Assembly: GCF_054482595.1 (NCBI RefSeq)
Contig: NZ_CM137008.1
Strand: one strand, 5' to 3'
DNA length: 64,000 nt
Notes under the pieces: model-generated
What the model was told of the DNA's origin: nothing
The model's database searches: none
The model's input: only the letters and a program-made list of their open reading frames with translations
Part shown: positions 6,067-53,107 of the stretch, one piece after another
How the letters are laid out: each line of letters starts with the position of its first letter
How positions within the stretch are numbered: the stretch's first letter is position 1
Translations under genes and position numbers: made by a program

Positions 6067-6080
6067 TGTTCCGGCCCCTT

Positions 6081-6566: not shown

Positions 6567-6657
6567 GAGATTATTCCTTATAAAAAGCAAATGAATGGAA
6601 GAATGCCTGGGGACTGGTACAGACGTGAGTCAGGGCTGCACTTTCAGGGAAACAGCA

Positions 6658-7476: not shown

Positions 7477-7565
7477 ACTTTGCTCCTTATGAATGAATTA
7501 GCGGTATAAACGAAAAGGCCGCGTCTCCCGGAGAAGACGCGGCCTGATGGATGAAATGAAGACGT

Positions 7566-7775
7566 TTATTGCCTGAGAATTCCCTCACTGGCGAGATACG
7601 AATTTAGCTGTTTTCCGGCATCAGGTTCAAAATTCCAGCACCGCCAGCGTAGCTGCCCTTCGGCATTGCGGATAACCAGCCGGAAATGCGTTCCCTGGTC
7701 ATCTTCAATAAGCACATTGCGGTAAGCTGTTGTGACGGCAACCGCCTGTTCGCGTGAGAAAGGGCCTTCGGGCAA
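7566..7775 (-). CDS. DUF905 protein (YkfF/YfjT-like)
   Basis: 69 aa; [54 protein letters not shown] resembles K-12 YkfF. Confidence 0.7.
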
Positions 7776-7804
7776 TAAAACAGGGTGGCAGTCCTACATA
7801 CCGG

Positions 7805-8482: not shown

Positions 8483-8629
8483 GACTGACCTCTGAAATGA
8501 ACGTACGGTGTTATTGATAATGATGGAAGGTATGCAGTGACTGTTCAGGGAATGACGTAGCCGTATATTTAGTTTTCTGTTCAACATATTGTCTCCATAC
8601 CTGTCGGGACGGCTTTGGCAGGCCGGCAA

Positions 8630-9310: not shown

Positions 9311-9512
9311 AGATGTGCACTCCGTAAGAAAACATCTTTTATTTCATGATGTTATTATGCATCATGATGTTGAAAGGATGTGTCGCATCCGGATAATCAG
9401 GAATAAAATGCAGCAGAAAAAATATTCTTTTAATTATCTGATTTTTAAGCATGATTTCATAAAAAGAAGAATGCTCGTTAATCCAGCGACACATCCTGTC
9501 GGCGTGAGTGTG

Positions 9513-10397: not shown

Positions 10398-10581
10398 ACC
10401 GGTATCCTGTTGATTTCACTGAACCGGATCACACTAATCCGGTTTATCATTCAGGTAATATGGACGTGAAAAATGATGGAATGTCTGAATTACGGATATT
10501 ATTGTTAAAGTGTAATGGAGTATGAAGTGAGTTTTTCAGAACGGGAACTAATGACATACTGCGGTTTCAGGAGATGAGAGG

Positions 10582-11712: not shown

Positions 11713-12252
11713 CACCATTTAACTGAAAGCTACCATAACGTCTTTTTGATCACACGCATGATAATGCGTCTCATTTAAATTTCGTTTTTTGGGTCATGGA
11801 AATTTTCCGAACATCAGTGATAATGAGGGTTTTGTTGTTTTTGTTTCTGCAATGTTTGAGGGCTGTTCCTGGAGACGATTCGTTGCTTGTGAGCAAGTGG
11901 TGGTCCGCTTTACTGGACGAGTTTTGCATTTGTTGAGTGGTGAAATGGAAGTAAAAAGAGCCCCTTTCTGGCAATGACTGAAAAAGTCAGTAGCGTGTAA
12001 CAGTAAAAACTAACATAAAGTGATTATCGTATGATTATGACAATAACTTATAACTTTTATGAAAAGAACAACAGAAACTACGAAGCCATAACAGATTCCT
12101 GAGACCATGTTTTCTGAGGTAGAGAAAATAATTCAAGAGTAAACCAGTTTGTTTTTTGGTCAGTAAAGAACCATGCCTGATGTGAAAACGGGTAATCAAC
12201 ATTCAGTCTGCATGGATGTTTGGAAGAGTTGAGAATGTCGGTATGATACTAT

Positions 12253-12360
12253 ATACACGTATTTTTACTAAGCATTTCAGTAAGTGTTATACACGTATTT
12301 TTACTAAGCATTTCAGTAAGTGTTATACACGTATTTTCATAAACACTTCTACAAGTGTTT
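12253..12360. repeat. tandem direct repeats (2 perfect 36-bp units plus a degenerate third)
   Basis: ATACACGTATTTTTACTAAGCATTTCAGTAAGTGTT at 12253-12288 and 12289-12324, then a diverged copy beginning ATACACGTATTTTCATAAACACTT. Confidence 0.85.
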
Positions 12361-23252: not shown

Positions 23253-24291
23253 ACAAATATTATTGAAAGAGATTTTTATGAAAACGAAGCTTTTTACGAT
23301 TTCTATCGGCATTGATGTAATATAGAAGAGTTATATAAATTATTCAAATCAAATTTTCTATTGAAGATTTTCATTCACAGAGTGAGAAAGATGTAAAATA
23401 AAAATACAGGCTCATATATTATTACTTAACCTTACATGGATATCCTGAAATGACATTAATTATTAAGATAATAACGTTTTCATCGGTAGTAGTAGAAATA
23501 AACAAAATTTTAATTTCAAAAACTGCTTGTTTCTCGTAGTGAGGTACTTGTCTTTACTGATTCGGATAACAGGAAAACATTTAAAATCATTCTGTTGCGC
23601 TCTTTCTGAGAGGCTGATTGCAAAATGGCATCTGAATCGATCGCAGTTGTATGACTCAGCGAGTAAGGCCAGGGAGGTGTTACCCACGAAAATATGTACG
23701 GCCCAGAACGCGCTGGAACTCTTTTGATGCTCCAGCAAGAACTTAACCGAATGCCATTGGTACGCTGCCCCACAGAAAATTCCGTCACTAATGGCGGTAG
23801 CCGACAGATTCACATGGCGTCACCGCAGTAAACCAAGATGGATCTTGATTGCGTCCTCAACAGACAACATATCTGCTTTGGACAACGAGCCAATATGTGT
23901 TTTGAGACAGGACTTATCCGCCGCCATAATCTGCTCTACAATCGCTTTGCTGCTCTGACACCTACGGTCACAACAGCCTCACTTGGATACACTCGCTCTG
24001 TGTTACTGGTCAGAGGAACGACGACTACTCGAGCGAGGTTCCTGTTTGCTGCGTCATTGCTCACGATCACTGCCGGACATGTCTTGCGGATTTCACTGTC
24101 AACAGCAGGATCAAATTCAATCCACCACGTCTCACCTGTGCCGTCACTGCTCTGTCATCTTTCTAACACTTTACTGTCTAACACATGTAATAAAAAAGTT
24201 ATTTTTCTGCAATTCGGGCATGATATTTAATCCCACGAGCATGAAACGTGTGAATTCGCTCATCAGGTACAACAAGCAAGAGAGATAAACG

Positions 24292-25608
24292 ATGAAACCG
24301 TTACATTATACAGCTTCAGCACTGGTGCTCGGACTGACGTTAATGGGGAATGCACAGGCAGTGACGACCATTCCGTTCTGGCACTCTATGGAAGGGGAAC
24401 TGGGTAAAGAGGTGAATTCTCTGGTCCAACGTTTTAACGCCGAAAACCCGGATTACAAAATTATACCGACTTATAAAGGCAACTACGAAGAGAGTTTAAG
24501 TGCGGGGATCGCAGCATTTCGTACCGGTAACGCTCCGGCTATTTTGCAGGTTTATGAAGTTGGCACCGCCACCATGATGGCGTCGAAAGCCATTAAACCG
24601 GTGTATGACGTGTTTAAAGAGGCGGGGATTAACTTTGATGAGTCGCAGTTTGTGCCGACGGTTTCAGGCTACTACTCCGACAGTAAAACCGGACACTTAC
24701 TCTCCCAGCCGTTCAACAGCTCGACTCCTGTTCTCTATTACAACAAAGATGCTTTCAAGAAAGCAGGATTAGACCCGGAACAGCCGCCGAAAACCTGGCA
24801 GGATCTGGCGGACTATGCCGCGAAACTGAAAGCCTCCGGTATGAAGTGCGGCTACTCCAGCGGCTGGCAGGGCTGGATCCAACTGGAAAACTTTAGCGCC
24901 TGGAACGGTCTGCCGTTTGCCAGCAAAAACAACGGCTTTGACGGCACAGATGCGGTGCTGGAGTTCAACAAGCCGGAGCAGGTGAAACACATCGCCATGC
25001 TCGAAGAGATGAACAAGAAAGGCGATTTCAGCTACGTCGGGCGTAAGGATGAATCCACCGAGAAGTTCTATAACGGTGATTGCGCAATGACGACTGCCTC
25101 TTCTGGTTCTCTTGCCAGCATTCGCGAGTACGCCAAATTCAACTACGGCGTAGGCATGATGCCTTACGACGCTGACGCGAAAGATGCACCACAAAACGCC
25201 ATTATCGGCGGAGCCAGCCTGTGGGTGATGCAGGGCAAAGATAAAGAAACGTATACCGGCGTGGCGAAGTTCCTCGACTTCCTCGCGAAGCCAGAAAATG
25301 CTGCCGAGTGGCACCAGAAAACCGGTTATCTGCCAATCACCAAAGCGGCGTATGACCTGACCCGTGAGCAGGGCTTTTACGAGAAAAACCCAGGGGCGGA
25401 TATCGCGACACGTCAGATGCTGAACAAACCGTCGTTACCGTTCACCAAAGGACTACGTCTGGGCAACATGCCGCAGATCAGAGCGATTGTGGATGAAGAG
25501 CTTGAGAGCGTGTGGACCGGTAAGAAGACGCCACAGCAGGCGCTGGATACCGCCGTTGAGCGTGGGAATCAGTTACTACGCCGCTTTGAGAAATCGACGA
25601 AGTCTTAA
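24292..25608 (+). CDS. ugpB: sn-glycerol-3-phosphate ABC transporter periplasmic binding protein
   Basis: 438 aa, near-identical over its length to E. coli UgpB as I recall it ([11 protein letters not shown]...GNAQA signal, ...[10 protein letters not shown]-terminus). Confidence 0.9.
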
Positions 25609-25742
25609 CCAGTGTAATGTCGGATACGTTTCGCCTATCTGAGCTAACATCGCGTGTAGGCCGATGTGATTGACATCTTCCTCCTTACGGCATCAACGTT
25701 CCAGACTGAGATGTACCCAGTTCCCTGGTGGAGAAGTCAGTC

Positions 25743-26650
25743 ATGAATATTAATCGTATTGGTTTCGATCTTGCCGAAAAATGTTTTTCAAATCCACGGC
25801 GTTGATCACAATGAATAGTGGTACGGAGAAAAACGCTGAGCCCTCCCCACATGATGACGTTTTTCTCCGGGCTTTCTCCCTGCCTCATCAGCATCGAAGT
25901 CTGTGGCTCTTCCCATTCTGGGCACGGGAACTCATTCCGTATGGGGCCTACCGTGCGCATTATTCCGTAGAAACTTGTCAAATCTTATCTCAAAGGTAAC
26001 AAAAACGACGCTAATAATGCAGCTGCCATCTGTGAGGCCGTCAGCAGGCCCGGCATGCGATTTGTTGTTTTCATATCGGAATCCCAGCAGACGTTACAGG
26101 AAGAATACCGGGTCCGGGCCAGAATCATCCGCGAGCGAACGGCGTTGCGTAATGAAATCCGGGGGCTGTTGAGTGAATTTGGTCTGCTGCTGCCTGTGGG
26201 GATAAGGCACGTGCGTAAAATCCAGCAGGGAATACTGCCCAGGGGCAGTGGAATGACCCTTCATCCGTTTGTTGTGCGAACTGTCAGAGTAAAATGAACT
26301 CATATCGTCTCATGACCACCGTCTTCATGAGGCTGCAAGGGATGATATCCGTATTAAACAGCTGATGGAGCTAAAAGGAGTTGGTCCCACAACAGCCTGT
26401 GCGCTGGTTGCCTGTATCGGTAATGCACATGATTTTAAAAAGGGACGGCAACTGGCAGCCTGGCTGGGCTGACGCTATCACAATACAGCAGCGGCTGAAT
26501 GTCGAAGCTGGGCAGGATAACAAAAGCCGGTGATTCGTATCTGCGAATGCTTCTGGTTCAGGGGGCTCGTTCAGTACTGATTGGTGCTGAGAAAAGGACT
26601 GACTCATTCAGTCGTTGGGTCTGTTCACTGGTTGAACGCAGAGAATACTG
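25743..26650 (+). pseudogene. IS110-family transposase, multiply frameshifted
   Basis: Starts MNINRIGFDLAEK then shifts frame; later pieces ...EYRVRARIIRERTALRNEIRGLLSEFG... and ...LMELKGVGPTTACALVACIGNAHDFKKGRQLAAWLG... in different frames. Confidence 0.6.
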
Positions 26651-27102
26651 ACGCGCTGTTGTGGCCATCGCCGCCAGAAAGGTAAGGCTGTGCTGGGCAT
26701 CATGTCATTACGGTGATGATTTCAGGCTGTATTCAGCCAGCTAAAGCACGCAGCAACCGTATGACTATCTGATCTGCAACTCGTTGATGATAAAGTGTTA
26801 GACCCTGTGAGGTATATCTGATTATTGTACAGGATATACGTATCCGCTTAACGAACAAGAGCCTCACGCGCGTCTTTCATCTGGGCCGAATAGATGAGAT
26901 TCATCATGGTTGTTTATAGTACCGTCGTCTCTCCCCTTTATTTTTACAGAAAAGCAAACAGAAACCATAAATACCGGCGTTGACATGGCGGGGAAGCCGG
27001 CAACGGCTATCCCTACCGTAATCATAATATTTCTGTCATTTCTGCTCCCTACAATGACGTTAGTTTTACTTCTGGGCGATAACAACGAAAGGAGAGTATG
27101 AC

Positions 27103-28446
27103 ATGCACAACTCCAAAATCCGGCTGGCTATACTGGTTGGCTGCATGGCTCTGAGCGCCAACCTGTGGGCCAAAGCGCAGCCGGTGCAGGCAACGCTGGC
27201 CGGGCATGCAATTCTGCCGGCAAAATCCGCTGTTTCAACACCGAAGGATGCGCCGGGCGATTTGCAACAGAGCGGCAAATACACCAGCGGCAAACGCGTC
27301 ACCGAGCTGGGCAGCGTGGCGGGCAAATCCGCAGAACGCCTGACAGGACTCAGCCTGCCGATCAATGGTCAGCCGTTGCAGGGCCACTCAGGTATCAAAC
27401 ACATGCCCGACGGTACCTATTGGGTGCTGACTGACAATGGCTTCGGCAGCAAAGCCAACTCCCCGGATGCCATGCTGTACCTCAACCAATACAAGATAGA
27501 TTTCAAAGACGGCTCGGTAGTACCGCTGAAGACGCTGTTCCTGCATGATCCGGATAAAAAGGTGCCGTTCCACATCATCAACGAGAGCACCGAACTACGC
27601 TATCTGACCGGCAGCGATTTTGATCCGGAAAGCTTCCAGTTTTCCGACGATGCCTTATGGATCGGTGATGAGTTCGGTCCTTACCTGATCAAGACCGACC
27701 TGAACGGCAAGGTGCTGGCGGTGTTCGACACAGAAGTGGACGGTAAGGTGGTTAAATCGCCGGACAACCCGACGCTGACTCTACCTAGCGCTCCGGACGG
27801 TAAGCTGAACTTCCAGGTGGCGCGTTCCAAAGGCTTTGAAGGCATGGCCATCTCGCCGGACGGCAGTAAGCTGTATCCGCTGCTGGAAGGGGCATTGTGG
27901 GACGGTGAGCAGTTCGAGAACGTTGACGGAAAACGCTACCTGCGTGTGCTGGAGTTCGATACCAAACAGCAGGCCTGGACTGGTCGCAGCTGGCAGTACG
28001 TGCTGGAAGACAACCAGAACGCCATCGGCGACTTCAATATGATAGATGATACCCACGGACTGGTGATCGAGCGTGATAACGGCGAAGGCACGGCGGATAA
28101 AGCCTGCGTCGCCGGCGCGCCGACCAACAACTGCTTCAGTCAAGTAGCCAGGTTCAAACGGGTGTATAAAATTGCTTTCTCGGACACTAACGTCGGAAAA
28201 CCTGTCGAAAAACTGGGCTATATTGACCTGATGAAGATTCAGGATCCGAACAAGCTGGCACGCAAGCCGCTGAACGACGGTGTGCTGACCTTCCCGTTCT
28301 TCACCATCGAGAACGTGGATGTGGTTGACACTAACCACATCATCGTAGGCAACGATAATAACTTCCCGTTTTCCTCCAGCCGCTGGCCTAATATGGCGGA
28401 TGACAACGAGTTTATTCTACTGGATGTGAAGGATTTTCTGAAGTAG
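27103..28446 (+). CDS. secreted phytase-like esterase-family protein
   Basis: 447 aa with signal peptide (MHNSKIRLAILVGCMALSANLWA); family call is by recollection only. Confidence 0.5.
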   Translation: MHNSKIRLAILVGCMALSANLWAKAQPVQATLAGHAILPAKSAVSTPKDAPGDLQQSGKYTSGKRVTELGSVAGKSAERLTGLSLPINGQPLQGHSGIKHMPDGTYWVLTDNGFGSKANSPDAMLYLNQYKIDFKDGSVVPLKTLFLHDPDKKVPFHIINESTELRYLTGSDFDPESFQFSDDALWIGDEFGPYLIKTDLNGKVLAVFDTEVDGKVVKSPDNPTLTLPSAPDGKLNFQVARSKGFEGMAISPDGSKLYPLLEGALWDGEQFENVDGKRYLRVLEFDTKQQAWTGRSWQYVLEDNQNAIGDFNMIDDTHGLVIERDNGEGTADKACVAGAPTNNCFSQVARFKRVYKIAFSDTNVGKPVEKLGYIDLMKIQDPNKLARKPLNDGVLTFPFFTIENVDVVDTNHIIVGNDNNFPFSSSRWPNMADDNEFILLDVKDFLK

Positions 28447-28485
28447 GGGGAAGAGCATCTTACGATACTCCTCGCTAATTTAAAA

Positions 28486-28512
28486 ACGAACGGTGCTGAG
28501 CACCGTTTTTAA
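28486..28512 (+). terminator. Rho-independent terminator
   Basis: AACGGTGCT-GA-AGCACCGTT hairpin followed by TTTT, about 40 bp after the stop of the 27103-28446 gene. Confidence 0.6.
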
Positions 28513-28563
28513 TCACCTCGCCAGAACCTACCAGAATATGATGTTGGTGGTAATGACTCCAAC

Positions 28564-29067
28564 TTATTGATAGTGTTTTATGTTCAGATAATGCCCGATG
28601 ACTTTGTCATGCAGCTCCACCGATTTTGAGAACGACAGCGACTTCCGTCCCAGCCGTGCCAGGTGCTGCCTCAGATTCAGGTTATGCCGCTCAATTCGCT
28701 GCGTATATCGCTTGCTGATTACGTGCAGCTTTCCCTTCAGGCGGGATTCATACAGCGGCCAGCCATCCGTCATCCATATCACCACGTCAAAGGGTGACAG
28801 CAGGCTCATAAGACGCCCCAGCGTCGCCATAGTGCGTTCACCGAATACGTGCGCAACAACCGTCTTCCGGAGACTGTCATACGCGTAAAACAGCCAGCGC
28901 TGGCGCGATTTAGCCCCGACATAGCCCCACTGTTCGTCCATTTCCGCGCAGACGATGACGTCACTGCCCGGTTGTATGCGCGAGGTTACCGACTGCGGCC
29001 TGAGTTTTTTAAGTGACGTAAAATCGTGTTGAGGCCAACGCCCATAATGCGGGCTGTTGCCCGGCAT
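28564..29067 (-). CDS. insB: IS1 InsB
   Basis: 167-aa ORF; the functional transposase would be the InsAB' frameshift fusion. Confidence 0.9.
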
Positions 29068-29261
29068 CCAACGCCATTCATGGCCATATCAATGATTTTC
29101 TGGTGCGTACCGGGTTGAGAAGCGGTGTAAGTGAACTGCAGTTGCCATGTTTTACGGCAGTGAGAGCAGAGATAGCGCTGATGTCCGGCGGTGCTTTTGC
29201 CGTTACGCACCACCCCGTCAGTAGCTGAACAGGAGGGACAGCTGATAGAAACAGAAGCCAC
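28986..29261 (-). CDS. insA: IS1 InsA
   Basis: 91 aa; [40 protein letters not shown]... Confidence 0.9.
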
Positions 29262-29396
29262 TGGAGCACCTCAAAAACACCATCATACACTAAATCAGTA
29301 AGTTGGCAGCATCACCCGCAGGACTTAGGTGCCGTAGCCTTAGTACCAAAAGGCGATACCTCTGGCGCTGACCGTAAAGGTCTTTTCAATCGTTCA

Positions 29397-29843
29397 TTGT
29401 TCAAATATGACCAGGAAAAAGATATTTATATTTGCCCGATGGGTGAAGAACTTCAGAACCGATTTACGATGGTTGAGGATGGTTTAGAACAGCAAATGTA
29501 CTTTAACAATATTGCCTGTCGCGATTGCAGTCAGCGGTCAAGGTGCACCACATCAAAACGCGATCCGAGGCGTATAAAGCGCTGGGTTCATGAAGCAGAA
29601 ATGGAAGACATGCAAGCCAGGCTTAATGCATCGCCACAAACAGCTGTCGTGCGAAAGCAAACGGTAGAGCATCCGTTCGGGACAATTAAGATGTGGATGG
29701 GAGCGACTCACTTCCTGACGCAACGGTTTAAAAACGTCAGCACAGAAATCAGTCTGCATGTACTGGCTTATAACCTGAAGAGGATGATGTCCATCTGGGG
29801 GGCCGAAGGATTGGCCATTAAGCTGCGAGAACGATGCAGCTAG
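29397..29843 (+). pseudogene. DDE transposase C-terminal fragment (IS5/IS1182-like), truncated at the IS1 junction
   Basis: ...HPFGTIKMWMGATHFLTQRFKNVSTEISLHVLAYNLKRMMSI is a typical DDE transposase C-terminus; the N-terminal half is absent. Confidence 0.5.
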
Positions 29844-30167
29844 CGGCAGTGGCCGCTTTAACTCCTAATAACTGGCCATTAGTACTCCATATCAAGCCAC
29901 AAAGTCTCGTTTTGCCTCAACATACAAATCACTGCGAATACAGCCCATATCAGGAATATCTTGCATCCCTGCTGGTGTTAGTCCTCAGATACTGAAAAAA
30001 CCGAGTTTTTACACAGCCTGGGCACGAAGCGGACCGCCTGAAGCGCAGCAAGGTCTGCTTTGAACTCACAGCGAAGAGCAGAATATACCGGGAGATATCC
30101 TCTTTCATGAGTTGGCAGCCTCTCTCGCATAATATCGAAAACACGGGAGAGGCCGTTACAGCCGCCG

Positions 30168-30932
30168 TTAGTTAGCACGGAATTCCTGGACGGTATCCCA
30201 TGCCACCTGCTGCAGCGCTTTGGCGGTTTGCTCGGTCATATCGCTGTCGGCAGGCAGTGCGCCGCCTATCGGTGACTGGTCATACAGCGTGGCGAACAGC
30301 ACGCTGGCAGCCAGATAGGTTCCCGCCAGCGAGGGGTGATTTCCATCGCTATGATACAGATTGATTTCAGGATGCGTCTTAATTGCGTTACTGAAGGCCA
30401 GCCCGACCGGCGCGACGTATCCCCCGGTTTTACTGGCTATATTCAGATAGGCTTTCTCCAGTTTTTCAGTTTGCTCGGGTTTATCCTTGCTGGCCCAGGT
30501 CATAAAATAAACCACACGCGAGCCCTCTTTGTGAGCCATATCTGCCATCTTGACGGCGGACTCCGTGAAATAGTGACGCGAATCTTTTTTAGCGGAAAAA
30601 GGCTCTGTTGAATTCCCCTGAAATATCACCACGTCCCATTTTTGCAGCGTATTCTGGAATTCAAGATTCGGAAGGTGCCAGCCTAAACGTCCAGAAGAAA
30701 TGGTGATTCCCCGGAACATATAGTCTTTAGCGCCATTCGGTAACAGCGAACGGCTGAGATCGCGCAGTCGGGTATTTATATTATTGTTATAATGTGTATA
30801 TGAATTTCCGTAGAGCGCAATGGATTTATTGACTCCGCTCAGTTTATCCTGCGGTTTGGCTGCAATAATCGTATCGGCCTGCGCGTCGACCATCAGCGCC
30901 AGTCCTGCCAGCAACAACATGATTTTTTTCAT
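30168..30932 (-). CDS. secreted SGNH/GDSL-type hydrolase (esterase-like)
   Basis: Start set at ATG 30932 (MKKIMLLLAGLALMVDAQA signal); family assignment tentative. Confidence 0.5.
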   Translation of the reverse strand: MKKIMLLLAGLALMVDAQADTIIAAKPQDKLSGVNKSIALYGNSYTHYNNNINTRLRDLSRSLLPNGAKDYMFRGITISSGRLGWHLPNLEFQNTLQKWDVVIFQGNSTEPFSAKKDSRHYFTESAVKMADMAHKEGSRVVYFMTWASKDKPEQTEKLEKAYLNIASKTGGYVAPVGLAFSNAIKTHPEINLYHSDGNHPSLAGTYLAASVLFATLYDQSPIGGALPADSDMTEQTAKALQQVAWDTVQEFRAN

Positions 30933-30942
30933 TATTCTTTCC

Positions 30943-31992
30943 TCAGAAGTCGTAGCGCAACCCGACGATAATGGCGTCATCGTTGACCTTCTCGTTTTTA
31001 CTGGCCAGCGTATTAAGGTAAGTTGCTGATAAATACACATTCTTAGCTAAGGTTAGCTGCGATTCAATTCGCCAGCCCTCGTGTTCGTACACATCCTCGT
31101 CGGCTTCATCCAGGATGCTGTACCCGCCAAGCACTTTGAATTCTTTGGTGAATTGATAGGAGGCAACGGAATCGAAACTCGTATAGTCATTGTCAGATTT
31201 ATTGTCTCTTTCTATGGAGACCTTACCCGCCGTTACGGCTAATGACAAATCGCTATAATCGAACTGCAGCCCGCCCATTACCTGGCTGTGCTTCTTGCGG
31301 CCGTCGGTGGTTTTTACGCCGTCCTGACGGTTATATTGACTGACGGCAATCGCCGGTGTGATTTTTACGTCGCCGAATTTAATCATCTTGCGATAACTGG
31401 CCATCATGCCGTTATCAAGTGCATCGTTGTCGCTATTGCCATTTCCAAAAACGTAAGCCAGTTGCACCTGATGCCCGCTAAAATCACCGTTCCATTGCAG
31501 GGTGCCATCCTGACGGTTAAATTGGTAAGAATCGTCAATAGTGGTAATACCGTAGTTATATACGTTTGGCGTAAAGTTTTTATATTTGTCCGTCATGCGC
31601 ATGACCTGATATAACGGGTTTTTAGTACGACCGGCAATCAGCTCGCCATATTTAGCATGAGAAAGCCCCAGATAGGCGTAACGGGCGTCGAGATCTTTAT
31701 CTTTGGTTTTATTATCATCTTTTTCAGTACGAACCTGCCACTCCAGGCGACCGACAAGTTTAGTATCTTCCAGTAAAGGGAGGTCGCGGGTTAAATAAAT
31801 CCCTAAGCGCCCCCCTATTTGGCTACGGGAGTCATCATTTGCGAATGATGCTTCTCCATTCGCTAACTGCCACTCAATACGCCCGTAAATATCCAGCGTG
31901 GTGGCTTTATCCTCATAAACGCTAATCGCCAGCGCTGACGTGCTAGCCCCAGATAAGGCAATGAATAATAATGTTTTGGCTTTAATGCTCAT
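30943..31992 (-). CDS. outer-membrane beta-barrel porin
   Basis: 349 aa, signal peptide (MSIKAKTLLFIALSGASTSALA), alternating hydrophobic pattern, C-terminal ...GLRYDF with terminal Phe. Confidence 0.6.
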   Translation of the reverse strand: MSIKAKTLLFIALSGASTSALAISVYEDKATTLDIYGRIEWQLANGEASFANDDSRSQIGGRLGIYLTRDLPLLEDTKLVGRLEWQVRTEKDDNKTKDKDLDARYAYLGLSHAKYGELIAGRTKNPLYQVMRMTDKYKNFTPNVYNYGITTIDDSYQFNRQDGTLQWNGDFSGHQVQLAYVFGNGNSDNDALDNGMMASYRKMIKFGDVKITPAIAVSQYNRQDGVKTTDGRKKHSQVMGGLQFDYSDLSLAVTAGKVSIERDNKSDNDYTSFDSVASYQFTKEFKVLGGYSILDEADEDVYEHEGWRIESQLTLAKNVYLSATYLNTLASKNEKVNDDAIIVGLRYDF

Positions 31993-32410
31993 GCTGTTCT
32001 TCCCCTTTAAAAAATAAATATGTTCGCCCTTGATGCAGGATTAAATAGTTGTTATCAGGCGCCATTAATTTTTAGTTACATTAATGCAGAGCGAATACGG
32101 GAATTGCGTTTTCTCATAATAAAATGTGATTTTACGCACATAAAATAGGGCTTAATGGCTGGCGTTGTTATTTGTGAAGATTTCATTGAAAATAAATAAT
32201 AGCGATTTAATTGATTCTCTCCGAACTGAGATATAAATGGCGAATTTATGTTAATCTCATCACGTTTTTCATATTGTGATCCCCGGAACATATGGGAAAT
32301 GCATATTCCCCTGTTTACGCAGTGAGAATTGCTCCAGAATACTCGTTACGCAGTTAAATTTGATTTGAATGATATGCTGTTATCAGCGACGTACGTCACA
32401 GGAGTTTATA

Positions 32411-33781
32411 ATGCCAGGCAGTCAAAGTTCGGTATTTGATTCAGAATTGTATTCCTCTCTCTTCACGCAGCCGGAGATGAAATCAATCTGGTCCGATGAT
32501 AATCTTCTTCGCTGTTGGCTGACCTTTGAAGCAACCATCGCGCATGTGCAGACTGAGTTAGGTATTATTCCCCCTGAAGCCGCCGCGGAAATTTCCGCCG
32601 CCTGCCAGACGCTGAAAATAGACTGGCCGCGCCTCGCCAGGGAAACGCGTTCCGTCGGTATGGCGATTAAGCCTCTGGTTGATCAAATTGCCGATGCGGG
32701 TTCCCCTTTGGTCAAAAAATACCTTCACTGGGGCTGCACGACTCAGGATCTGCTGGATACCGCCCTGGCCATGCGCATGAAGCAAACCCTGCAATTACTG
32801 CGCAGACAGTTGGTGCAGTTGGGCGAAACGTTGAAAGCTATGGCGCTTGAGCACCGACATACGGTGATGGTCGCCAGAACGAATTCCGTCGATGCTTCCG
32901 CCACGACGTGGGGGCTACACGTCAGCAGCTATCTGTCCGAGCTAACCCGCCACCTTCAGCGCCTGGATCGCCTCTACCCGGCAGCGACTACCGGCCTGTT
33001 TGGTGGCGCGGTCGGCAACCTGGCCTCCGTCGGCAGCCAGGGAATGGCGATACGTAAGCAATTAATGGGCGCGTTAGGGTTGTCATGCCCTGTCGGTATG
33101 AGCAATGCCAGTCAGGATCATGTAGTCGAAGTGGTGCAGTTTTTTGCCCTGGTGCATGGCACGCTGTGTCGCATGGCCAACGACGTTGAAACGCAGGGCC
33201 GCACGTCCGTGGGCGAGTTGCGTGAAGGCGAAGGCGGTGGAGGATCCAGTACGATGCCACACAAGACGAATCCCCGCGCGAGCAATATGATCCAGACGCT
33301 TTCCCGCATGGGCTGGAACTATGCCTCTGGTGCAACCAGCCTTCTCGATCAGTGTGACGTGCGTGCTGCCTCCGCCCGCGTACTCAACTGGACGCTGGTA
33401 CCGGAGTCGGCGCTGGCCTTGTCGGCCAGCCTTGAACGTGCTGTCCGGTTAATTACGCATCTGGTGGTGGACAAAGAGAAGATGCGCAGCAACTTCGCCG
33501 CTTCAAAGAACTTCATTATGTCGGAATCCGTCACCATGGTATTGGCTGAGAAAATCGGGCGTGGTGCCGCTTACGATCTGATGAAAGCGTTATTAAAAGA
33601 CGCAGACGGCTCTAAAGACCTGTTGCAGTGCATGCTGGAAAATCAGACCGTTATTGACGCGCTAACTGAGTCGGAGATTGTTGCTGCTTGCGATCCATTG
33701 TCTTATCTGGGCTGCAATGACGCGCTGATCGAAGAAACCGTCATAGCCTTCGACGATTACATTCATGTCCGGACGGCGTAG
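32411..33781 (+). CDS. fumarate-lyase-superfamily enzyme (adenylosuccinate-lyase / 3-carboxymuconate-cycloisomerase-like)
   Basis: ATG 32411 preceded by AGGAG; signature GSSTMPHKTNP (GSSxMPxKxN); substrate not inferable from sequence. Confidence 0.75.
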   Translation: MPGSQSSVFDSELYSSLFTQPEMKSIWSDDNLLRCWLTFEATIAHVQTELGIIPPEAAAEISAACQTLKIDWPRLARETRSVGMAIKPLVDQIADAGSPLVKKYLHWGCTTQDLLDTALAMRMKQTLQLLRRQLVQLGETLKAMALEHRHTVMVARTNSVDASATTWGLHVSSYLSELTRHLQRLDRLYPAATTGLFGGAVGNLASVGSQGMAIRKQLMGALGLSCPVGMSNASQDHVVEVVQFFALVHGTLCRMANDVETQGRTSVGELREGEGGGGSSTMPHKTNPRASNMIQTLSRMGWNYASGATSLLDQCDVRAASARVLNWTLVPESALALSASLERAVRLITHLVVDKEKMRSNFAASKNFIMSESVTMVLAEKIGRGAAYDLMKALLKDADGSKDLLQCMLENQTVIDALTESEIVAACDPLSYLGCNDALIEETVIAFDDYIHVRTA

Positions 33782-33834
33782 TCCAGAGCCATTCGCTTCC
33801 TGCCGAAAGCAGGTGTGCCGACAGGAAGCGGTCA

Positions 33835-34722
33835 TTATCCAGGAAGAGGTGAAAAGGTTTCAAAAAAGACAAACAGTTCCTCCAGTTGCTCGAAATTGCC
33901 CTCGCCTTCGCCTTTTTCATAGGCCAGATGCAACACCAGCTCAATAAAAAAGAAACCTACGATGCGGCTTTTGAATACGGATTGCGTATCGCTCGGCAAC
34001 ACAAACTGCAGATTACAAAATTTGCCGTACGGGTTGGACTCCGAGTTAGTAATCAGCACTACCGTCGCGCCTTTTTTACAACACCATTCGGTAACGCGAA
34101 TCACTACCCGGTTAAAACGGTAGTAGGAGAAAACGATCAGCACGTCCTGATCCGTAACGGTCAGCAATGACTTCGGCAACTCCCCAACGTCCATAGAAAG
34201 CAATGTAACCCGATCGCGGAAATATTTAATCAGCGTAGTAAAATGTTTCGCCATCGCATAGGAAGACGCGGGACCGATTACGTATATATGTCGGTTGGTA
34301 TTCAAAATAATGTCGATAAATTTATCCAGACTGTCAATATTGATATTATCTTTAAAATTCTCGAACAAGGTCGTAACATTCTTATTAAATTCGGAAACAA
34401 TTTGTTCCGTGGTAATCTTTTCTTTTACCTGAATGCGTGATGCCAGCTCAAACGGCGGCACCATTTTTTGCAGTGTCAGCGTATTTTCCAATGCCCGACG
34501 GAAGTCAGCGTAGCCGATAAATCCCAGCTTATTTAAAAAACGCCCAACCGTTGCTTTACTCACCATTGCATTGCGGGCAATGTCGATGATGCCGTGAAAA
34601 GGGAGTTCATTAAAATGTTCACGCATATACGCGTCAAGACGGTGTTCTGACTCGGTTAGTGAACATAACAGCACGGTTTTTGAAATATAGTCCTCTAATG
34701 TTAAAGGGGTATTTTTTTTCAT
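33835..34722 (-). CDS. RpiR/MurR-family transcriptional regulator (HTH + SIS domain)
   Basis: 295 aa; N-terminal HTH (...IIDIARNAMVSKATVGRFLNKLGFIGY...), C-terminal SIS-like region; divergent from the transporter gene. Confidence 0.7.
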   Translation of the reverse strand: MKKNTPLTLEDYISKTVLLCSLTESEHRLDAYMREHFNELPFHGIIDIARNAMVSKATVGRFLNKLGFIGYADFRRALENTLTLQKMVPPFELASRIQVKEKITTEQIVSEFNKNVTTLFENFKDNINIDSLDKFIDIILNTNRHIYVIGPASSYAMAKHFTTLIKYFRDRVTLLSMDVGELPKSLLTVTDQDVLIVFSYYRFNRVVIRVTEWCCKKGATVVLITNSESNPYGKFCNLQFVLPSDTQSVFKSRIVGFFFIELVLHLAYEKGEGEGNFEQLEELFVFFETFSPLPG

Positions 34723-35005
34723 AATTGTCGTCCTTACACACTACGGATAAAAAGATACTATATTCAGTATAGAGAATAACCTTATCACATAATAATGCTA
34801 TGCTATAGCCTTCCGTAAAGTGATTGACATATTTCCTGTTATGAGATCATGCGCACAAACCCCAGCGGGAAAAGCAATTTCTCATAGCTCACATTACCCT
34901 GATTCGATCATGATTTCATTACGGCATCAGTCTCTGAATTTATAGAGAATTAGGCGATCTAAATATAACTAGCCGTCATATATAGGAAAACAAAAGGACG
35001 ATCTC

Positions 35006-36382
35006 ATGACCGCATTTGTAATCGCAATCGTGATCACTATCATTGCAGCATGGTTAATCATCAAGAACTTCCAACCTCAGACGGTATTGCTGCTGGCTGG
35101 TTTGTCTTTACTGACCATTACTGCTGTCTTCTATCCTGATAATAGCATTCTCTACGGTAAGGCTAAATCAACCGGTTCCACCTGGCTGGATATCTTTACG
35201 TTTGCCAAAAATTCACTCTCCACACAGATCGCCGGTATCGGTTTGATCATCATGGCCGCGGGCGGCTTTGCCAGTTATATGGATCATATCAAAGCCTCCA
35301 ATGCAATGGTGAACGTCTGCATTCGTCCCCTGCAAATCATCAAGGCGCCCTACGTGATCCTGGCTGTGGGGTATATTTGCGCACAGTTGCTGCACGTCGC
35401 GATTTCCAGCGCCGCCGGGCTGGCGATGATGTTATTAGTGACGTTCTTCCCGGTGTTGGTACGACTGGGTGTCAGTAAAGCAGCGGCGGCGGCGATGATC
35501 GGTCTGTGCGCCTTTATGGACTTAGGCCCGGCGGTCGGCACGGCCAACCTGGCGGCTAAACATGCCGGTATGGAAGCCGCCGTTTACTTTGCGCACTATC
35601 AGATGCCGGTGGCTGTTGCCGTTATGTTGGTAGTGTCGGTGCTGATTTTCTTTACCGCCAAATATTATGACAAGAAAGATGGTCACGTGATGACCAGCCA
35701 GGTGGCGGACGACACGACGCCTCAGAGTGAGGATAGCGAAAAAGTGCCGGGGCTGTATGCTTTCCTGCCTGTATTCCCTGTGATTCTGGTGCTGGTCTTT
35801 AGCCCGTTGGTCATCTCCACCATTAAAATCGACGTAGTTACCGCCATGATTGTCGGCACAATACTGGCGTTCGTCTGCGAACTGTTCGTTAAACGCGACT
35901 TCCGTGCCTGCTGTAAAGGTGTACAGGTATTTTTTAAAGGAATGGGCGGGATGTTTACCAGCGTGGTTTCATTGTTAGTGTGTGCGGATATCTACGCGCA
36001 GGGAATGCAAAAAATCGGCGCGGTGGATTACCTGTTGGAGATGGTGCAGAACGCGGGCTTTGGCTTTGCCAGCATGACCGTGGTGATGACGCTGCTGGTA
36101 GGTATAACCGCTGTACTGACGGGCTCCGGGGTTGCGGCATTTTTCTCTTTCTCCGGCATGGCGCCTGCTATCGCCACTAAATTTGGCGAAAGCGCTGTAC
36201 ATATGATTCTGCCGATGCAACTGATGGCTGGAATGGGACGTTCCATTTCTCCCGTCGCAGGGATCATCATTGCGGTCAGCAAAGCCGGTGAATGTTCACC
36301 GTTCATGATAGTGCGCAGGACCTTAATTCCGGCGCTCGGCGGCATGCTTACCATGTTGCTGGCTAACTACCTGTTGTTCTGA
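35006..36382 (+). CDS. DcuC-family (C4-dicarboxylate-type) membrane transporter
   Basis: 458-aa polytopic membrane protein; size and composition resemble DcuC as I recall it. Confidence 0.55.
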   Translation: MTAFVIAIVITIIAAWLIIKNFQPQTVLLLAGLSLLTITAVFYPDNSILYGKAKSTGSTWLDIFTFAKNSLSTQIAGIGLIIMAAGGFASYMDHIKASNAMVNVCIRPLQIIKAPYVILAVGYICAQLLHVAISSAAGLAMMLLVTFFPVLVRLGVSKAAAAAMIGLCAFMDLGPAVGTANLAAKHAGMEAAVYFAHYQMPVAVAVMLVVSVLIFFTAKYYDKKDGHVMTSQVADDTTPQSEDSEKVPGLYAFLPVFPVILVLVFSPLVISTIKIDVVTAMIVGTILAFVCELFVKRDFRACCKGVQVFFKGMGGMFTSVVSLLVCADIYAQGMQKIGAVDYLLEMVQNAGFGFASMTVVMTLLVGITAVLTGSGVAAFFSFSGMAPAIATKFGESAVHMILPMQLMAGMGRSISPVAGIIIAVSKAGECSPFMIVRRTLIPALGGMLTMLLANYLLF

Positions 36383-36469
36383 AGGACGTGTCGTCAGTGC
36401 GATGCCATTAAATCCAGAGAGCCAGGCGAGAGTACTTTGTTGTCAACATCAGTTAGCCGGACGTAAGTT

Positions 36470-38164
36470 ATGACCCACGAAATCACAGACAATTTACTTT
36501 ATATCCCTTATGCAGGCCCGGTATTACTGGAATCCCCGCTGCTGAACAAAGGCAGCGGGTTTACTGAAACAGAACGCGCAATGTTTAACCTGAGCGGGCT
36601 GTTGCCCGCAGCGGTTGAGACGATTGAAGAGCAGTCGCTGCGGGCCTATCAGCAATTCCTGGATATCAAGTCGGATATTGCCCGTCATATCTTTCTGCGC
36701 AATATTCAGGATACCAACGAGACGCTGTTTTATCACCTTGTGAGCAAGCACCTGGTGGAAATGATGCCGATTATTTATACCCCGGTAGTCGGACATGCGT
36801 GTGAACACTTTTCCGACATCTATCGCCGCGCCAGGGGATTATTCATCGCCTGGCCGGACCGGCATATGATCGACGAAATATTGCATAACGCCACAAAGCA
36901 GAATATTTCGGTGATTGTCGTCACTGACGGGGAGCGGATCCTCGGCCTGGGCGATCAGGGAATTGGCGGCATGGGGATTCCTATCGGCAAACTTTCGTTG
37001 TACACCGCCTGCGGTGGTATTAAGCCGTCGCATACGCTGCCAATCTTATTGGATGCGGGAACGAACAATTCCCAATTGCTCAATGACCCTTTGTATATGG
37101 GTTGGCGTCATCCGCGCATCACCGGCGACGCATATTTTGAGTTCGTCGAGATGTTTATCCGCGCGGTTAAGCGCCGTTGGCCGGACGTGCTATTACAGTT
37201 CGAAGATTTTGCCCAACAGACGGCGATGCCGCTGCTGACCCGCTATCGTGATGAGATCTGCTGTTTTAATGATGATATCCAGGGTACCGCAGCGGTGACT
37301 TTGGGATGCCTGATGGCGGCAAGCCAGGCCTCCCAACGTCGGTTATGTGACCAAACGGTAGTCTTCCTGGGCGCGGGATCGGCCGGATGTGGCATTGCCG
37401 AACATATCGTCACGCAGATGGTGGCTGAAGGGTTGACCGATGAGCAGGCCCGTTCACGCATTTTCATGGTGGATCGCTTTGGCCTGCTTACGGACGATCA
37501 AACTAATCAGGCTCCTTTCCAGTCACCGCTGGCGCAGCCGCGGTCGCGTTTGGCGAGCTGGGGCGGTCAGCAGGAGGCGTACTCGCTGATGGACGTGGTA
37601 AGCCAGGCTAAACCGTCCGTTCTGATTGGCGTCAGCGGGCAGCCAGGACTATTCAGCGAAGCGGTGATCGGGGAAATGTATCGTCACTGTTCGCAACCGA
37701 TAGTTATGCCACTTTCCAACCCAACCTCGCGCGCAGAGGCACGGCCGGAAGATATTCTGCGCTGGACCGATGGTAACGCGTTAATCGCCACCGGCAGCCC
37801 GTTCGAGCCGGTAAGCCACGGGGGAAAATTGTATCCTGTTGCACAATGCAATAATGTTTATGTCTTCCCTGGTGTGGGTCTCGGCGTGATGGTTAGCCGT
37901 GCCACACGCGTCACGGATAACATGATGATGGCGGCCAGCCGCACGCTGGCAAGTTGTTCGCCGCTGGTGCGCGACGGGCGTGGTCCGCTGTTGCCCAGTA
38001 TTAATGACATCCGGCAGGTGACGCAGGCCATCGCCCTTGATGTTGCTCTGGCTGCTCAACGTGATGGCGTCGCCGTAAATATCCCGCAGGAAACCTTGCA
38101 ACATAACATTTCGAGCGGATTCTGGGAGCCGCAGTATCTTCAGTACAAGCGCACCTCATTCTGA
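36470..38164 (+). CDS. NAD-dependent malic enzyme (MaeA/SfcA paralog)
   Basis: 564 aa; ...[22 protein letters not shown]...[34 protein letters not shown]...[13 protein letters not shown]... tracks E. coli MaeA closely but is clearly diverged. Confidence 0.85.
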
Positions 38165-38280
38165 TAAGCAGTCTGTAGCGGGAAGATCTTGATACCGTTG
38201 GTAACGGCGGTATCAATTCCGTAAAAGCCGCATGGCCCGTATCTGTTCCGAGTGTATCCGGTGTTATGGTAGCGCAATCG

Positions 38281-38700
38281 TCACCGGGCATAGCGACCCG
38301 GCAGATTCATACACAGTTTCGTCTCCTCGGCATAGAAATGCGGCAGGTTCCGCTGATAGTCAGACGGCGTTACACCACAAAGCATTTTGAAATCTTTGCT
38401 GAAATGGGCCTGATCATGGAAATCGAGGTCACAAGCAAGGGTGCGCAAATCGACCACGCCGTGATGGATGCGCCGGCACGCTTCATTTACTCTGAGAATA
38501 CGGACAAACGATTTCCAGGAAACGCCAATCCTCTCCTGGCAGAAGCGGTTAATGTGCCGGGCGCTGTATGACGTCATCTCGGACAAGCTATTAAGACGAA
38601 TGCCCCCGTTCAGCGGGGAAGCATGCGTCAGTACCTGACGCAGCAGCGGTTTTTCCTCCAACACAGCGAAGGTGGAAGTTGAGAATAACTCCTTAAGCAA
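38281..38700 (-). pseudogene. AraC-family regulator, HTH domain only (sensor domain cut off by IS1 copy B)
   Basis: 139-aa ORF with an AraC-type HTH; an in-frame stop lies between it and the IS1 end at 38821. Confidence 0.55.
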
Positions 38701-38820
38701 AGGTAGCCCGCAGAAGTATACTGAACGCTATAAAGAATGTAGTGGAGATGCTGGTTGTGAACAGCAGATCCGTAAGGATATGGCGAAAGAATCGGCGGAA
38801 AATGTTCTTAAGTTGAAGTC

Positions 38821-39588
38821 GGTGATGCTGCCAACTTACTGATTTAGTGTATGATGGTGTTTTTGAGGTGCTCCAGTGGCTTCTGTTTCTATCAGCTGTC
38901 CCTCCTGTTCAGCTACTGACGGGGTGGTGCGTAACGGCAAAAGCACCGCCGGACATCAGCGCTATCTCTGCTCTCACTGCCGTAAAACATGGCAACTGCA
39001 GTTCACTTACACCGCTTCTCAACCCGGTACGCACCAGAAAATCATTGATATGGCCATGAATGGCGTTGGATGCCGGGCAACAGCCCGCATTATGGGCGTT
39101 GGCCTCAACACGATTTTACGTCACTTAAAAAACTCAGGCCGCAGTCGGTAACCTCGCGCATACAACCGGGCAGTGACGTCATCGTCTGCGCGGAAATGGA
39201 CGAACAGTGGGGCTATGTCGGGGCTAAATCGCGCCAGCGCTGGCTGTTTTACGCGTATGACAGGCTCCGGAAGACGGTTGTTGCGCACGTATTCGGTGAA
39301 CGCACTATGGCGACGCTGGGGCGTCTTATGAGGCTGCTGTCACCCTTTGACGTGGTGATATGGATGACGGATGGCTGGCCGCTGTATGAATCCCGCCTGA
39401 AGGGAAAGCTGCACGTAATCAGCAAGCGATATACGCAGCGAATTGAGCGGCATAACCTGAATCTGAGGCAGCACCTGGCACGGCTGGGACGGAAGTCGCT
39501 GTCGTTCTCAAAATCGGTGGAGCTGCATGACAAAGTCATCGGGCATTATCTGAACATAAAACACTATCAATAAGTTGGAGTCATTACC
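38821..39588 (+). mobile_element. IS1 (complete, 768 bp), copy B, inverted relative to copy A
   Basis: Starts GGTGATGCTGCCAACTTACTGAT at 38821 and ends ...ATCAATAAGTTGGAGTCATTACC at 39588; insA 38876-39151, insB 39070-39573. InsB differs from copy A at two residues (S65R, S88R), so the copies are not identical. Confidence 0.95.
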
Positions 39589-39594
39589 GACACA

Positions 39595-49070: not shown

Positions 49071-49100
49071 AAAACGCCTGGCCGCATTATAAAAACGGCC

Positions 49101-52412: not shown

Positions 52413-53107
<695 letters not shown>

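Follow-up and report, generated by a model that had tools for sequence, protein, structure and literature searches.

An orphan ugpB joined to a dead hybrid IS110-family element and a phytase-like gene in a probable mobile block of an Escherichia coli genomic island

In Escherichia coli, the ugpBAECQ operon encodes the Pho-regulated sn-glycerol-3-phosphate (G3P) ABC transporter and lies between livF and ggt. REP sequences, one of which lies in the spacer between ugpB and ugpA, are targeted by IS621 of E. coli and by ISPpu9, ISPpu10 and ISPa11 of Pseudomonas, members of the IS110 family whose recombinases are guided by bridge or seek RNAs. More generally, REPs are recognized targets of IS110-family elements, and within this family the elements of the IS1111 group combine a short left end with a long right end and carry subterminal repeats (PMC11208160, PMC1525189). 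UgpB, in turn, has been described to act as a chaperone independently of its transporter, and its overexpression leads to bile resistance (PMC8144458). The locus reported here touches on each of these systems. Like other orphan or surplus substrate-binding proteins, its ugpB is a solitary gene whose product could serve a transporter encoded elsewhere, or none at all, and its surroundings resemble the IS-mediated mosaics of tRNA-associated islands, in which pieces of plasmid and chromosomal DNA and remnants of IS meet at IS ends, and of which the DNA analysed here is a typical case with no notable difference.

The window, a stretch of 64,000 nucleotides of contig NZ_CM137008.1 (assembly GCF_054482595.1), contains at 24131-28548 a block made of an orphan ugpB with a putative Pho-box promoter, an IS110-family element that is both dead and hybrid, and a gene for a phytase-like protein. 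We favour, with a probability of roughly 80%, the view that this is a fixed mobile mosaic block residing in a leuX-associated E. coli island such as that of W2-5. The features of the block and of its edges are the following.

23936-24121, minus strand: remnant of a PemK/MazF-type toxin gene, N-terminal half only (Pfam PF02452, positions 6-59 of 109)
24131-24291, plus strand: retained part of the ugpB promoter with the native ribosome-binding site; homology to the native locus begins at 24131
24152-24191, plus strand: four Pho-box heptads with 11-bp spacing, CTGTCAT-CTTT-CTAACAC-TTTA-CTGTCTA-ACAC-ATGTAAT
24292-25608, plus strand: ugpB, intact and orphan; complete ORF of 438 amino acids without stops
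25609-25663, plus strand: first 55 bp of the ugpB-ugpA spacer (REP/BIME), ending in ...GTAGGCCG at the break (alignment to K-12)
25664-26364, plus strand: left part of the IS remnant, "type A", with the tip ATGTGAT, a subterminal repeat, the 79-bp left end and the N-terminal half of the transposase
25743-26744, plus strand: IS110-family transposase pseudogene, both hybrid halves (RefSeq annotation of identical sequence; tblastn; PF02371)
26361-26998, plus strand: right part of the IS remnant, "type B", with the C-terminal half of the transposase and most of the long right end
26999-27102, plus strand: 10 nt of unassigned origin, then, from about 27009, the upstream region of the phytase-like gene (plasmid homology)
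27103-28446, plus strand: gene for a phytase-like (PF13449) secreted protein (Pfam, 209 bits)
28564-29261, minus strand: IS1 copy, the right boundary of the module in the window (ORFs InsA/InsB; annotation)

The initial annotation had recognized a near-canonical ugpB with its own upstream region, and this is confirmed by a complete ORF preceded by about 161 bp of Pho-box promoter. The protein matches the UgpB equivalog NF008211 (NCBIfam) with 931.9 bits against a cut-off of 411, over profile positions 4-439 of 439, and is 97% identical to UgpB of K-12, from which it differs by 13 amino acids (11 of them substitutions in the mature protein) and the gene by 69 nucleotides. Its alignment to the solved structures of E. 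coli UgpB, 4AQ4 and 6X84, runs from end to end (E = 1e-281 to 4AQ4), and its signal peptide is intact, ending at AQA/V before the mature N-terminus of 4AQ4. In addition to a full-length UgpB equivalog, ribosome-binding site and signal peptide, the locus shares with native ugpBAECQ the proximal Pho-box promoter and, in the downstream spacer, the first REP. It differs, however, in that ugpB stands without ugpA, E, C and Q, lies in a genomic island instead of between livF and ggt, and lacks the distal part of the promoter that native ugpB keeps, as the distal ~230 bp of the native livF-ugpB spacer are absent upstream of the orphan. When the upstream regions of K-12, W2-5, E. albertii and EC6563 were aligned, the four predicted Pho heptads were found at the 11-bp phase of the native promoter, some being nearer to CTGTCAT. 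Overall, the orphan promoter is 82% identical to the native one, compared to 92.5% between E. coli and E. albertii, and a scan for promoters and terminators returned nothing above shuffle expectation.

To the left, the ugp-derived DNA is abutted by the pemK remnant, which is also annotated in the identical sequence of W2-5, and the junction between the two is fixed in 196 genomes. Capture of ugpB between two flanking IS110 copies was considered, given that the ugp DNA of the EC6563 variant begins at ^GATAA of the upstream REP. This idea is unsupported, as the left flank resembles neither IS type, its local alignment score being below the shuffle mean.

DNA homology to the native ugp locus is limited to 24131-25663, and neither tblastn nor blastn detected ugpA, ugpE, ugpC or ugpQ in the 64-kb window. 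On the right, homology stops inside the spacer REP, 55 bp past the ugpB stop codon and exactly at the left tip of the IS110-family element, while the native K-12 spacer continues GATAAGCGAAGCGCATCCGGCA past the break point (REP consensus from PMC11208160). The initial annotation was thus correct in stating that the ugp operon is cut after its first gene by an IS110-family element, and that a gene of this family, rather than ugpA, comes next. Its extent needs to be revised, however, in that the element was taken to reach 26650 and IS-derived DNA actually runs from 25664, 79 bp before the transposase ATG, to 26998. The IS remnant followed ugpB in 10 of the 10 contexts sampled.

The transposase gene is recognizable but dead. 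Inactivation by frameshifts had been proposed, and RefSeq in fact labels the identical sequence "frameshifted; internal stop"; at least two frameshifts and at least six in-frame stops are present. Against an intact IS110-family transposase, tblastn aligned amino acids 1-340 in three reading-frame segments crossing at least six stop codons. Pfam PF02371 (Transposase_20) matches the C-terminal fragment, and for the DEDD N-terminal domain (PF01548) the only evidence comes from tblastn and the RefSeq annotation. The remnant is also a hybrid. Its type-A part is 82-88% identical to pseudogene copies located in the kgtP-rrfG REP of E2348/69 and DCE7, and its type-B part shares 91% identity with intact elements of the IS110 family carried by ETEC and Salmonella plasmids. 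The switch between the two is sharp and falls at the shared GCTGATGGA, with the type-A match extending to about 26369 and the type-B match starting at 26361. The whole remnant measures 1,335 bp, types A and B being 1,476 and ~1,409 bp long, respectively. Among 5,426 E. coli genomes, type-A DNA occurs only in the block or in the kgtP-rrfG REP, and in 72,556 plasmids the left half of the IS has no relatives other than distant ones (66%).

Several properties place the element close to the IS1111 group as defined in PMC11208160, namely a short left end (79 bp), a long right end (254 bp of non-coding DNA retained) and subterminal inverted repeats. The subterminal repeat on the left, ATTGACATCTTCC, corresponds to ATGGACACCTCCC in the copy of EPEC E2348/69, whose right end carries the complement, and the type-B subterminal repeat, GGGGAAGCC, lies at 26990-26998. 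With REP-targeting IS110-family elements in general the locus shares remnants of a DEDD/IS110-type transposase, subterminal repeats in the place of terminal inverted repeats, and a left tip located at a fixed point of a REP, which matches that of an independent related copy. The E2348/69 copy, in fact, has the same tip, ATGTGAT, at the same REP position, GTAGGCCG^GATAAG, in another REP, and this shared position fits REP-targeted insertion. The element of the window differs from those systems in being dead, hybrid and right-truncated, with unrelated DNA on its two sides; only the left tip is a genuine terminus abutting a REP half, and the right flank is unrelated DNA and not the other REP half. 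It also differs from IS621 in its IS1111-like architecture of a 79-bp left end and a long right end, and, based on our own reading of the target quoted in PMC11208160, the IS621 core and the break at GTAGGCCG^GATAAG fall at different points of the REP. Regarding a bridge RNA, Rfam 15 gave no match at E <= 1, and folding gave no signal (z-scores: window, -0.04; intact type B, -0.98).

The type-B part ends at 26998 without the last ~41 bp of the element. A right end at ~27052 was rejected, as 27009-27102 is upstream DNA belonging to the phytase-like gene itself: homology to plasmids pRM14721 and p2011C-4180-2, both without the IS, begins at 27009. Together with its upstream region, this gene shows 92.8% identity to IncF and IncI plasmids without the IS. 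All E. coli copies of the phytase-like gene are at least 99% identical to that of the module, the gene is always linked to the orphan ugpB, and its genome count is approximately that of the IS remnant. Only one good CTGTCAT heptad could be recognized by eye upstream of the phytase-like gene, and therefore no Pho box is claimed for it. Module homology ends at 28548, beside the IS1.

At the level of the genome, the window matches with 99-100% identity an island of W2-5 located between fim/nan and tRNA-Leu. The matching region of W2-5 spans 78 kb, from the nan/fim side to an integrase beside tRNA-Leu (leuX), the tRNA itself being outside the window; the integrase, the tRNA neighbour, the mosaic content and the absence from reference strains are those of a tRNA-associated genomic island. 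Of 5,426 complete E. coli genomes, 205 carry the 3.3-kb region with 100% identity, and because it recurs unchanged in about 200 independent complete genomes, it is not an artefact. The ugpB/IS110/phytase-like block is near-identical among its carriers, which make up only ~4% of complete E. coli genomes.

Within the window alone, where an IS follows ugpB and no other ugp gene is found, one could conclude that an IS110-family element inserted into the only ugp operon of the strain at its native site, that ugpAECQ was then deleted, and that the strain is Ugp-negative; a non-functional Ugp transporter had indeed been one of the two readings offered initially. We consider this extremely improbable. 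The flanks are not livF and ggt but the pemK remnant, an IS3, ProQ/FinO remnants and the phytase-like gene, and in W2-5 the block sits in the leuX island ~0.9 Mb away from a native ugpBAECQ that is intact (297792-302747), which is the very finding that had been named as speaking against a disabled operon. Furthermore, among the matches listed every carrier has ugpB in two places, ugpAECQ is present in 5,421 of the 5,426 complete E. coli genomes, and the orphan allele differs by at least 6% from every native E. coli allele. An intact native ugpBAECQ in the window's own genome is, on these numbers, a strong statistical expectation, and the broken transporter is very probably a wrong reading. With an intact native operon expected elsewhere, the Ugp transporter of the host would be unaffected, and what the window displays is ordinary island mosaicism and ordinary biology. 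A lone ugpB beside an IS should not be taken as loss of Ugp transport.

The other reading offered, a translocated second copy of ugpB, is correct as to a second, island-borne copy but not as to its source, which is a diverged allele and not a duplicate of the resident gene. Over 24131-25663, the best identity to a native E. coli locus among 5,426 genomes was 93.6%, and none of these native loci holds the orphan allele. Since no native E. coli allele exceeds 93.6%, the orphan is a distinct Escherichia-type allele. Its coding sequence is 94.2-94.8% identical to E. coli alleles and 93.9% to that of E. albertii, its divergence is even along the gene, and, judged by this divergence, recent duplication does not account for the island ugpB. 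In a scan of species representatives for UgpB as to the donor lineage, the only Escherichia among the matches listed were E. coli and E. albertii, with 92-93% identity over the region, and a look-up of the exact protein returned only island contexts. A literature search found no published description of a second, island ugpB.

How the block was assembled can be proposed from its junctions. An IS1111-like element would have inserted site-specifically into the ugpB-ugpA REP of an Escherichia-type donor chromosome, at GTAGGCCG^GATAAG, as the junction and the identical REP position in the relative suggest. This type-A element may then have recombined with a type-B element over the 9-10 bp stretch they share, at equivalent positions of their transposase genes; such an event, to which the sharp hybrid junction points, would have joined ugpB to plasmid-type DNA with the phytase-like gene and left ugpAECQ behind. 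Later deletion of the type-B right tip and of the distal ugp promoter, together with decay of the transposase gene, is visible in the present DNA. Subsequently the block spread through islands, mostly of poultry-associated and extraintestinal E. coli, and part of it was copied by IS1 onto phage-plasmids. The true right tip of the type-B part is absent, and the scheme therefore requires a minimum of one additional break that it does not explain. Among E. coli genomes, we did not find a type-A IS followed on the right by ugpA, nor, among E. coli genomes and plasmids, a type-B IS adjoining the phytase-like gene. Alternatively, a single, naturally mosaic IS might have inserted between a ugpB and a phytase-like gene that were already neighbours, as the remnant is near full IS length and prior linkage of two genes both related to phosphate scavenging is conceivable. 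We nonetheless find this quite unlikely, given that the right flank is not the second half of the REP (GATAAG...) but the upstream DNA of the phytase-like gene, that on IS-less plasmids this upstream DNA is contiguous with unrelated sequence, that the type-B right tip is missing, and that neither the 5,426 E. coli genomes nor the 72,556 plasmids yielded, outside the block, another copy combining an A left with a B right.

Whether the orphan gene has been of use to its carriers is a separate matter. It probably still works, and it would most likely be expressed from its retained Pho boxes under phosphate starvation and exported to the periplasm. The dN/dS is 0.069 relative to K-12 and 0.06-0.07 relative to native alleles. 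Two variants of the module share the IS junction, and both keep the Pho heptads, the ribosome-binding site and the signal peptide; outside a 5' tract, all five ugpB changes between them, which postdate its stranding, are synonymous (P ~0.0005-0.002 under neutrality, a signal that rests on five sites), and the IS remnant and phytase-like gene diverge by the same 0.4%. These observations, and the fact that ugpB has no stops or frameshifts in a block whose IS gene has several of both, argue against the view that ugpB is a neutral passenger, an undecayed dead-end fragment without expression or benefit. Some support for that view comes, however, from the surrounding IS remnants and pseudogenes, from the unusual divergence of the promoter, and from the raised nonsynonymous change on the orphan lineage (~11 more changes than native alleles, relative to the outgroup). 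Likewise, an IS66 truncates and destroys ugpB in some genomes, in one other genome an IS1 31 bp upstream of the gene separates it from its promoter, and most copies are near-identical, so that intactness could reflect recent spread. We therefore see the neutral passenger as a possible but rather doubtful explanation.

Equally tentative is the suggestion that the orphan UgpB belongs to a Pho-type phosphate-scavenging accessory module, mobile between plasmids and islands of Escherichia, that selection maintains in poultry-associated and extraintestinal E. coli, and of which the secreted phytase-like phosphodiesterase and, in an older variant and on plasmids, a PhoX phosphatase may be the other parts. 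The orphan might act in the periplasm as an extra G3P-binding protein feeding the resident UgpAEC; alternatively, it might play a transporter-independent role as a bile-responsive chaperone, as UgpB does. For the window copy, G3P binding, docking to UgpAE and bile protection would all be presumed by likeness to UgpB. If the module suggestion were true, the orphan would pass on to UgpAEC the G3P that the neighbouring enzymes release, or raise periplasmic bile tolerance; if expressed and useful, it would represent a horizontally acquired accessory substrate-binding protein, or chaperone dose, travelling with phosphate-scavenging genes.

Independently of function, the island ugpB allele, carried by ~4% of complete E. 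coli genomes, may be mistaken for the native one in pangenome, MLST-like and expression analyses. The locus also provides a clean natural case of a REP-targeting IS110-family element, of the bridge-RNA type, at the edge of a captured chromosomal gene, and the fusion of two members of this family at a short shared stretch illustrates how such elements could seed rearrangements that strand single genes and move them. Among the plasmid-derived fragments of the island are pemK, ProQ/FinO and the phytase-like/PhoX pair. As in IS1 composite transposons, pairs of IS1 carry a sub-block onto phage-plasmids, where the same IS1 that bounds the module in the window forms composite transposons.

The lead that emerges from this analysis is the clustering of genes for UgpB, a phytase-like protein and a PhoX-family phosphatase within one mobile block, together with signs that the orphan ugpB is under constraint. 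The observation made in the initial annotation is confirmed as a whole: a near-canonical ugpB is present, it is not followed by ugpA, and it abuts an inactivated IS110-family gene. The two genes concerned are:

24292-25608, + strand: ugpB, an uninterrupted 438-codon open reading frame
25743-26744: IS110-family transposase pseudogene, labelled "frameshifted; internal stop" in the RefSeq annotation of an identical sequence

Against the NCBIfam UgpB equivalog profile the ugpB product reaches 931.9 bits (cut-off 411), and its entire mature length aligns with the solved structures 4AQ4 and 6X84 of E. coli UgpB; 13 residues in the protein and 69 nucleotides in the gene distinguish it from K-12. When the entire window was searched by blastn, the K-12 ugp locus gave a single match, 24131-25663, and tblastn with UgpA, UgpE, UgpC and UgpQ gave none in the 64 kb. 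The gene has retained about 161 bp of native promoter region on its 5' side, including four heptads in 11-bp phase (24152-24191) that are counterparts of the native Pho-box block, and the ribosome-binding site is identical to the native one. Beyond the stop codon, ugp homology continues for 55 bp, entering the REP element in the ugpB-ugpA spacer, and ends at ...GTAGGCCG; the K-12 REP goes on with GATAAGCGAAGCGCATCCGGCA, with the ugpA start 42 bp beyond, while in the window IS110-family DNA starts at 25664.

The transposase gene is dead, as an intact plasmid-borne IS110-family transposase used as tblastn query was covered over residues 1-340 in three frame segments, crossing at least six stops; its C-terminal fragment matches PF02371. 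Sequence comparison shows that the element is a hybrid of two IS110-family elements, here called type A and type B, between which no nucleotide similarity was detectable. The type A part (25664 to about 26369) shares 82-88% identity with pseudogene copies that EPEC E2348/69 and seven other genomes carry between kgtP and rrfG. The type B part (26361-26998) has its counterparts, at 91% identity, in intact elements of ETEC and Salmonella plasmids, and the switch falls inside a common GCTGATGGA. As delimited by comparing E2348/69 with K-12, type A is 1,476 bp long, carries a subterminal repeat, ATGGACAcCTCCCG, five nucleotides from either tip, and in E2348/69 lies within a REP at GTAGGCCG^GATAAG. 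This pseudogene element occupies the kgtP-rrfG REP in eight complete genomes including E2348/69 (locus L007, 2501-3976) and DCE7 (locus L008), and no intact copy was seen in E. coli. Because the window element shares with type A both the left tip, ATGTGAT..., and its position in the REP, this junction is a genuine and site-specific end of the IS; REP targeting is documented for IS110-family elements (PMC11208160, PMC1525189). With its 79-bp left end and long right end, the window element has the layout of the IS1111-like group, in which a short left end is paired with a long right end (PMC11208160). The right side of the remnant is no genuine end: the type B part stops about 41 bp before type B's tip, and 10 nt separate it from the upstream region of the phytase-like gene, a region with 92.8% identity to IncF and IncI plasmids without an IS at that place. 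The earlier proposal that the operon was cut by an IS110-family element holds, in that ugp homology stops in the REP exactly where the genuine IS tip begins, and can be stated more precisely as REP-targeted insertion with subsequent IS-IS fusion.

The junctions of the block can be read directly, and from them we infer the order and nature of the events. A type A element would most likely have inserted into the REP 3' of ugpB in a donor chromosome and then recombined with a type B element at the short common stretch, at equivalent positions of the transposase genes, joining ugpB to plasmid-type DNA and leaving ugpAECQ behind; later deletions would have trimmed both outer edges, and the transposase would have decayed. 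Among complete E. coli genomes and plasmids, no pre-fusion state and no reciprocal product was found.

Such an arrangement had been taken to mean either that the Ugp transporter is non-functional or that this ugpB is a translocated second copy. Except for an IS1-bounded inversion, the window is 99-100% identical to the part of E. coli W2-5 that runs from the nan/fim genes to an integrase beside tRNA-Leu (leuX). This is a mosaic genomic island with a dnd/dpt system, autotransporters, toxin-antitoxin genes and many IS remnants. Among 5,426 complete E. coli genomes, 205 have the 3.3 kb around ugpB at 100% identity, chromosomal in every case, and each listed carrier has two ugpB places without exception. 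The genome-wide look for ugpAECQ and a second ugpB suggested in the initial annotation found both in the carriers that could be examined. In W2-5 the native ugpB-ugpA-ugpE-ugpC-ugpQ operon (297792-302747, between livF and ggt) is intact and unflagged, and at least 80% of ugpAECQ is contained in 5,421 of the 5,426 genomes; the operon is therefore not disabled in those carriers. We strongly expect it to be intact in the window's own strain as well, and a non-functional transporter is very unlikely. The second copy stands, yet not as a recent duplicate of the resident gene, since 24131-25663 is at most 93.6% identical in every genome without the block. The identity of the island coding sequence is 94.2-94.8% with three E. 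coli alleles and 93.9% with E. albertii, compared with 94.6% between these two species, and its differences are spread evenly over the gene; it is a distinct Escherichia-type allele. No donor was found by exact-protein look-up or among species representatives, where E. coli and E. albertii were the Escherichia matches listed. Because the native operon (loci L004, L014 and L015) itself falls into deep allelic classes in E. coli, an origin in another species is not proven; 681 genomes are only 90-95% identical to K-12 ugpAECQ, dS in native ugpB is 0.205 between K-12 and the GTDB representative, and these classes suggest old recombination at the native locus. The ugpB/IS110 arrangement is a typical product of IS-driven island mosaicism, representing anew known kinds: an orphan SBP gene, a REP-targeting IS110-family element and an IS1 composite transposon.

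The exact island UgpB protein is widespread, and in ten of ten sampled contexts its gene forms one block with the IS remnant and the phytase-like gene, with variable outer flanks; on the left, 196 genomes have a fixed junction with a PemK-toxin remnant. EC6563 (locus L106) and about 16 other genomes carry a second variant, with 99.16% identity across 24131-28548 and the IS junctions in common; it keeps about 258 bp of ugp upstream DNA, from ^GATAA of the upstream REP (L106 4895-5160, where ugp DNA in the window begins at 24131). In this older variant the ugp DNA runs to GTAGGCCG^ of the downstream REP, both edges being the same point of two directly oriented REPs, and the left flank shows no relation to type A or type B. 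ABC-transporter pseudogenes and a PhoX-family phosphatase (L106 1243-3222) lie 5' of its ugpB. Homologues of the phytase-like gene (window 27103-28446) at 92-93% occur on E. coli IncF and E. albertii IncI plasmids, convergent with that PhoX gene (plasmid loci L107 5001-8598 and L108 5001-8601), and this pair lies, at 93% identity, on plasmids of both species; one mobile block therefore unites three phosphate-scavenging genes. The IS tail and phytase-like gene were copied by IS1 pairs to IncHI1B phage-plasmids of E. coli and E. fergusonii, and the IS1-flanked piece (loci L006, L012 and L013), 100% identical to 26187-28548 or 26375-28548 with the left IS1 at either of two positions, is evidence that IS1 composite transposition carried it out of the island. 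Block carriers come mostly from poultry (chicken, duck, goose, turkey), with some human isolates, according to the genome match tables, and include the named APEC strains IMT5155, O2-211 and E12049.

As for whether the orphan ugpB still works, both variants keep its reading frame, signal peptide, ribosome-binding site and Pho heptads intact, dN/dS against native alleles is 0.06-0.07, and it has no stop codons beside an IS gene that has many. The variants diverge by 0.4%, evenly over IS remnant, ugpB and phytase-like gene, and outside a 5' tract all five ugpB differences are synonymous (P about 0.0005-0.002 under neutrality), a signal of five sites. These points count for function; that five-site basis counts as a caveat, as do about 11 more nonsynonymous changes than in native alleles with an outgroup as reference, an unusually diverged promoter, IS66 truncation of the gene in some genomes and, in one, an IS1 31 bp 5' of it. 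Within 24137-24260 the variants differ at 18 of 124 promoter positions, versus 19 of about 4,290 elsewhere; identity to the native promoter is about 82% for both island promoters, against 92.5% between those of E. coli and E. albertii. Either fast regulatory evolution or a recombination tract would account for this divergence. On its own, UgpB acts as a bile-responsive periplasmic chaperone and confers resistance to bile when overexpressed (PMC8144458), and a transporter-independent role for the orphan protein is plausible.

Elsewhere in the island, the segment between two IS1 copies at 28539-39597 (malic enzyme, dcuC, RpiR regulator, fumarase-like and porin genes) is inverted relative to W2-5, with an extra 1.4 kb at 29317-30737 that includes a 148-aa reading frame (29397-29843). 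To the left, 3760-12324 holds a CP4-type module with cbtA/yeeU toxin-antitoxin, antirestriction protein, DUF932, DUF905 and DUF987 genes, and the right end (48434-64000) has sodC, an autotransporter gene and the DNA-phosphorothioation genes dndBCD, after which the dptFGH restriction partner comes in W2-5.
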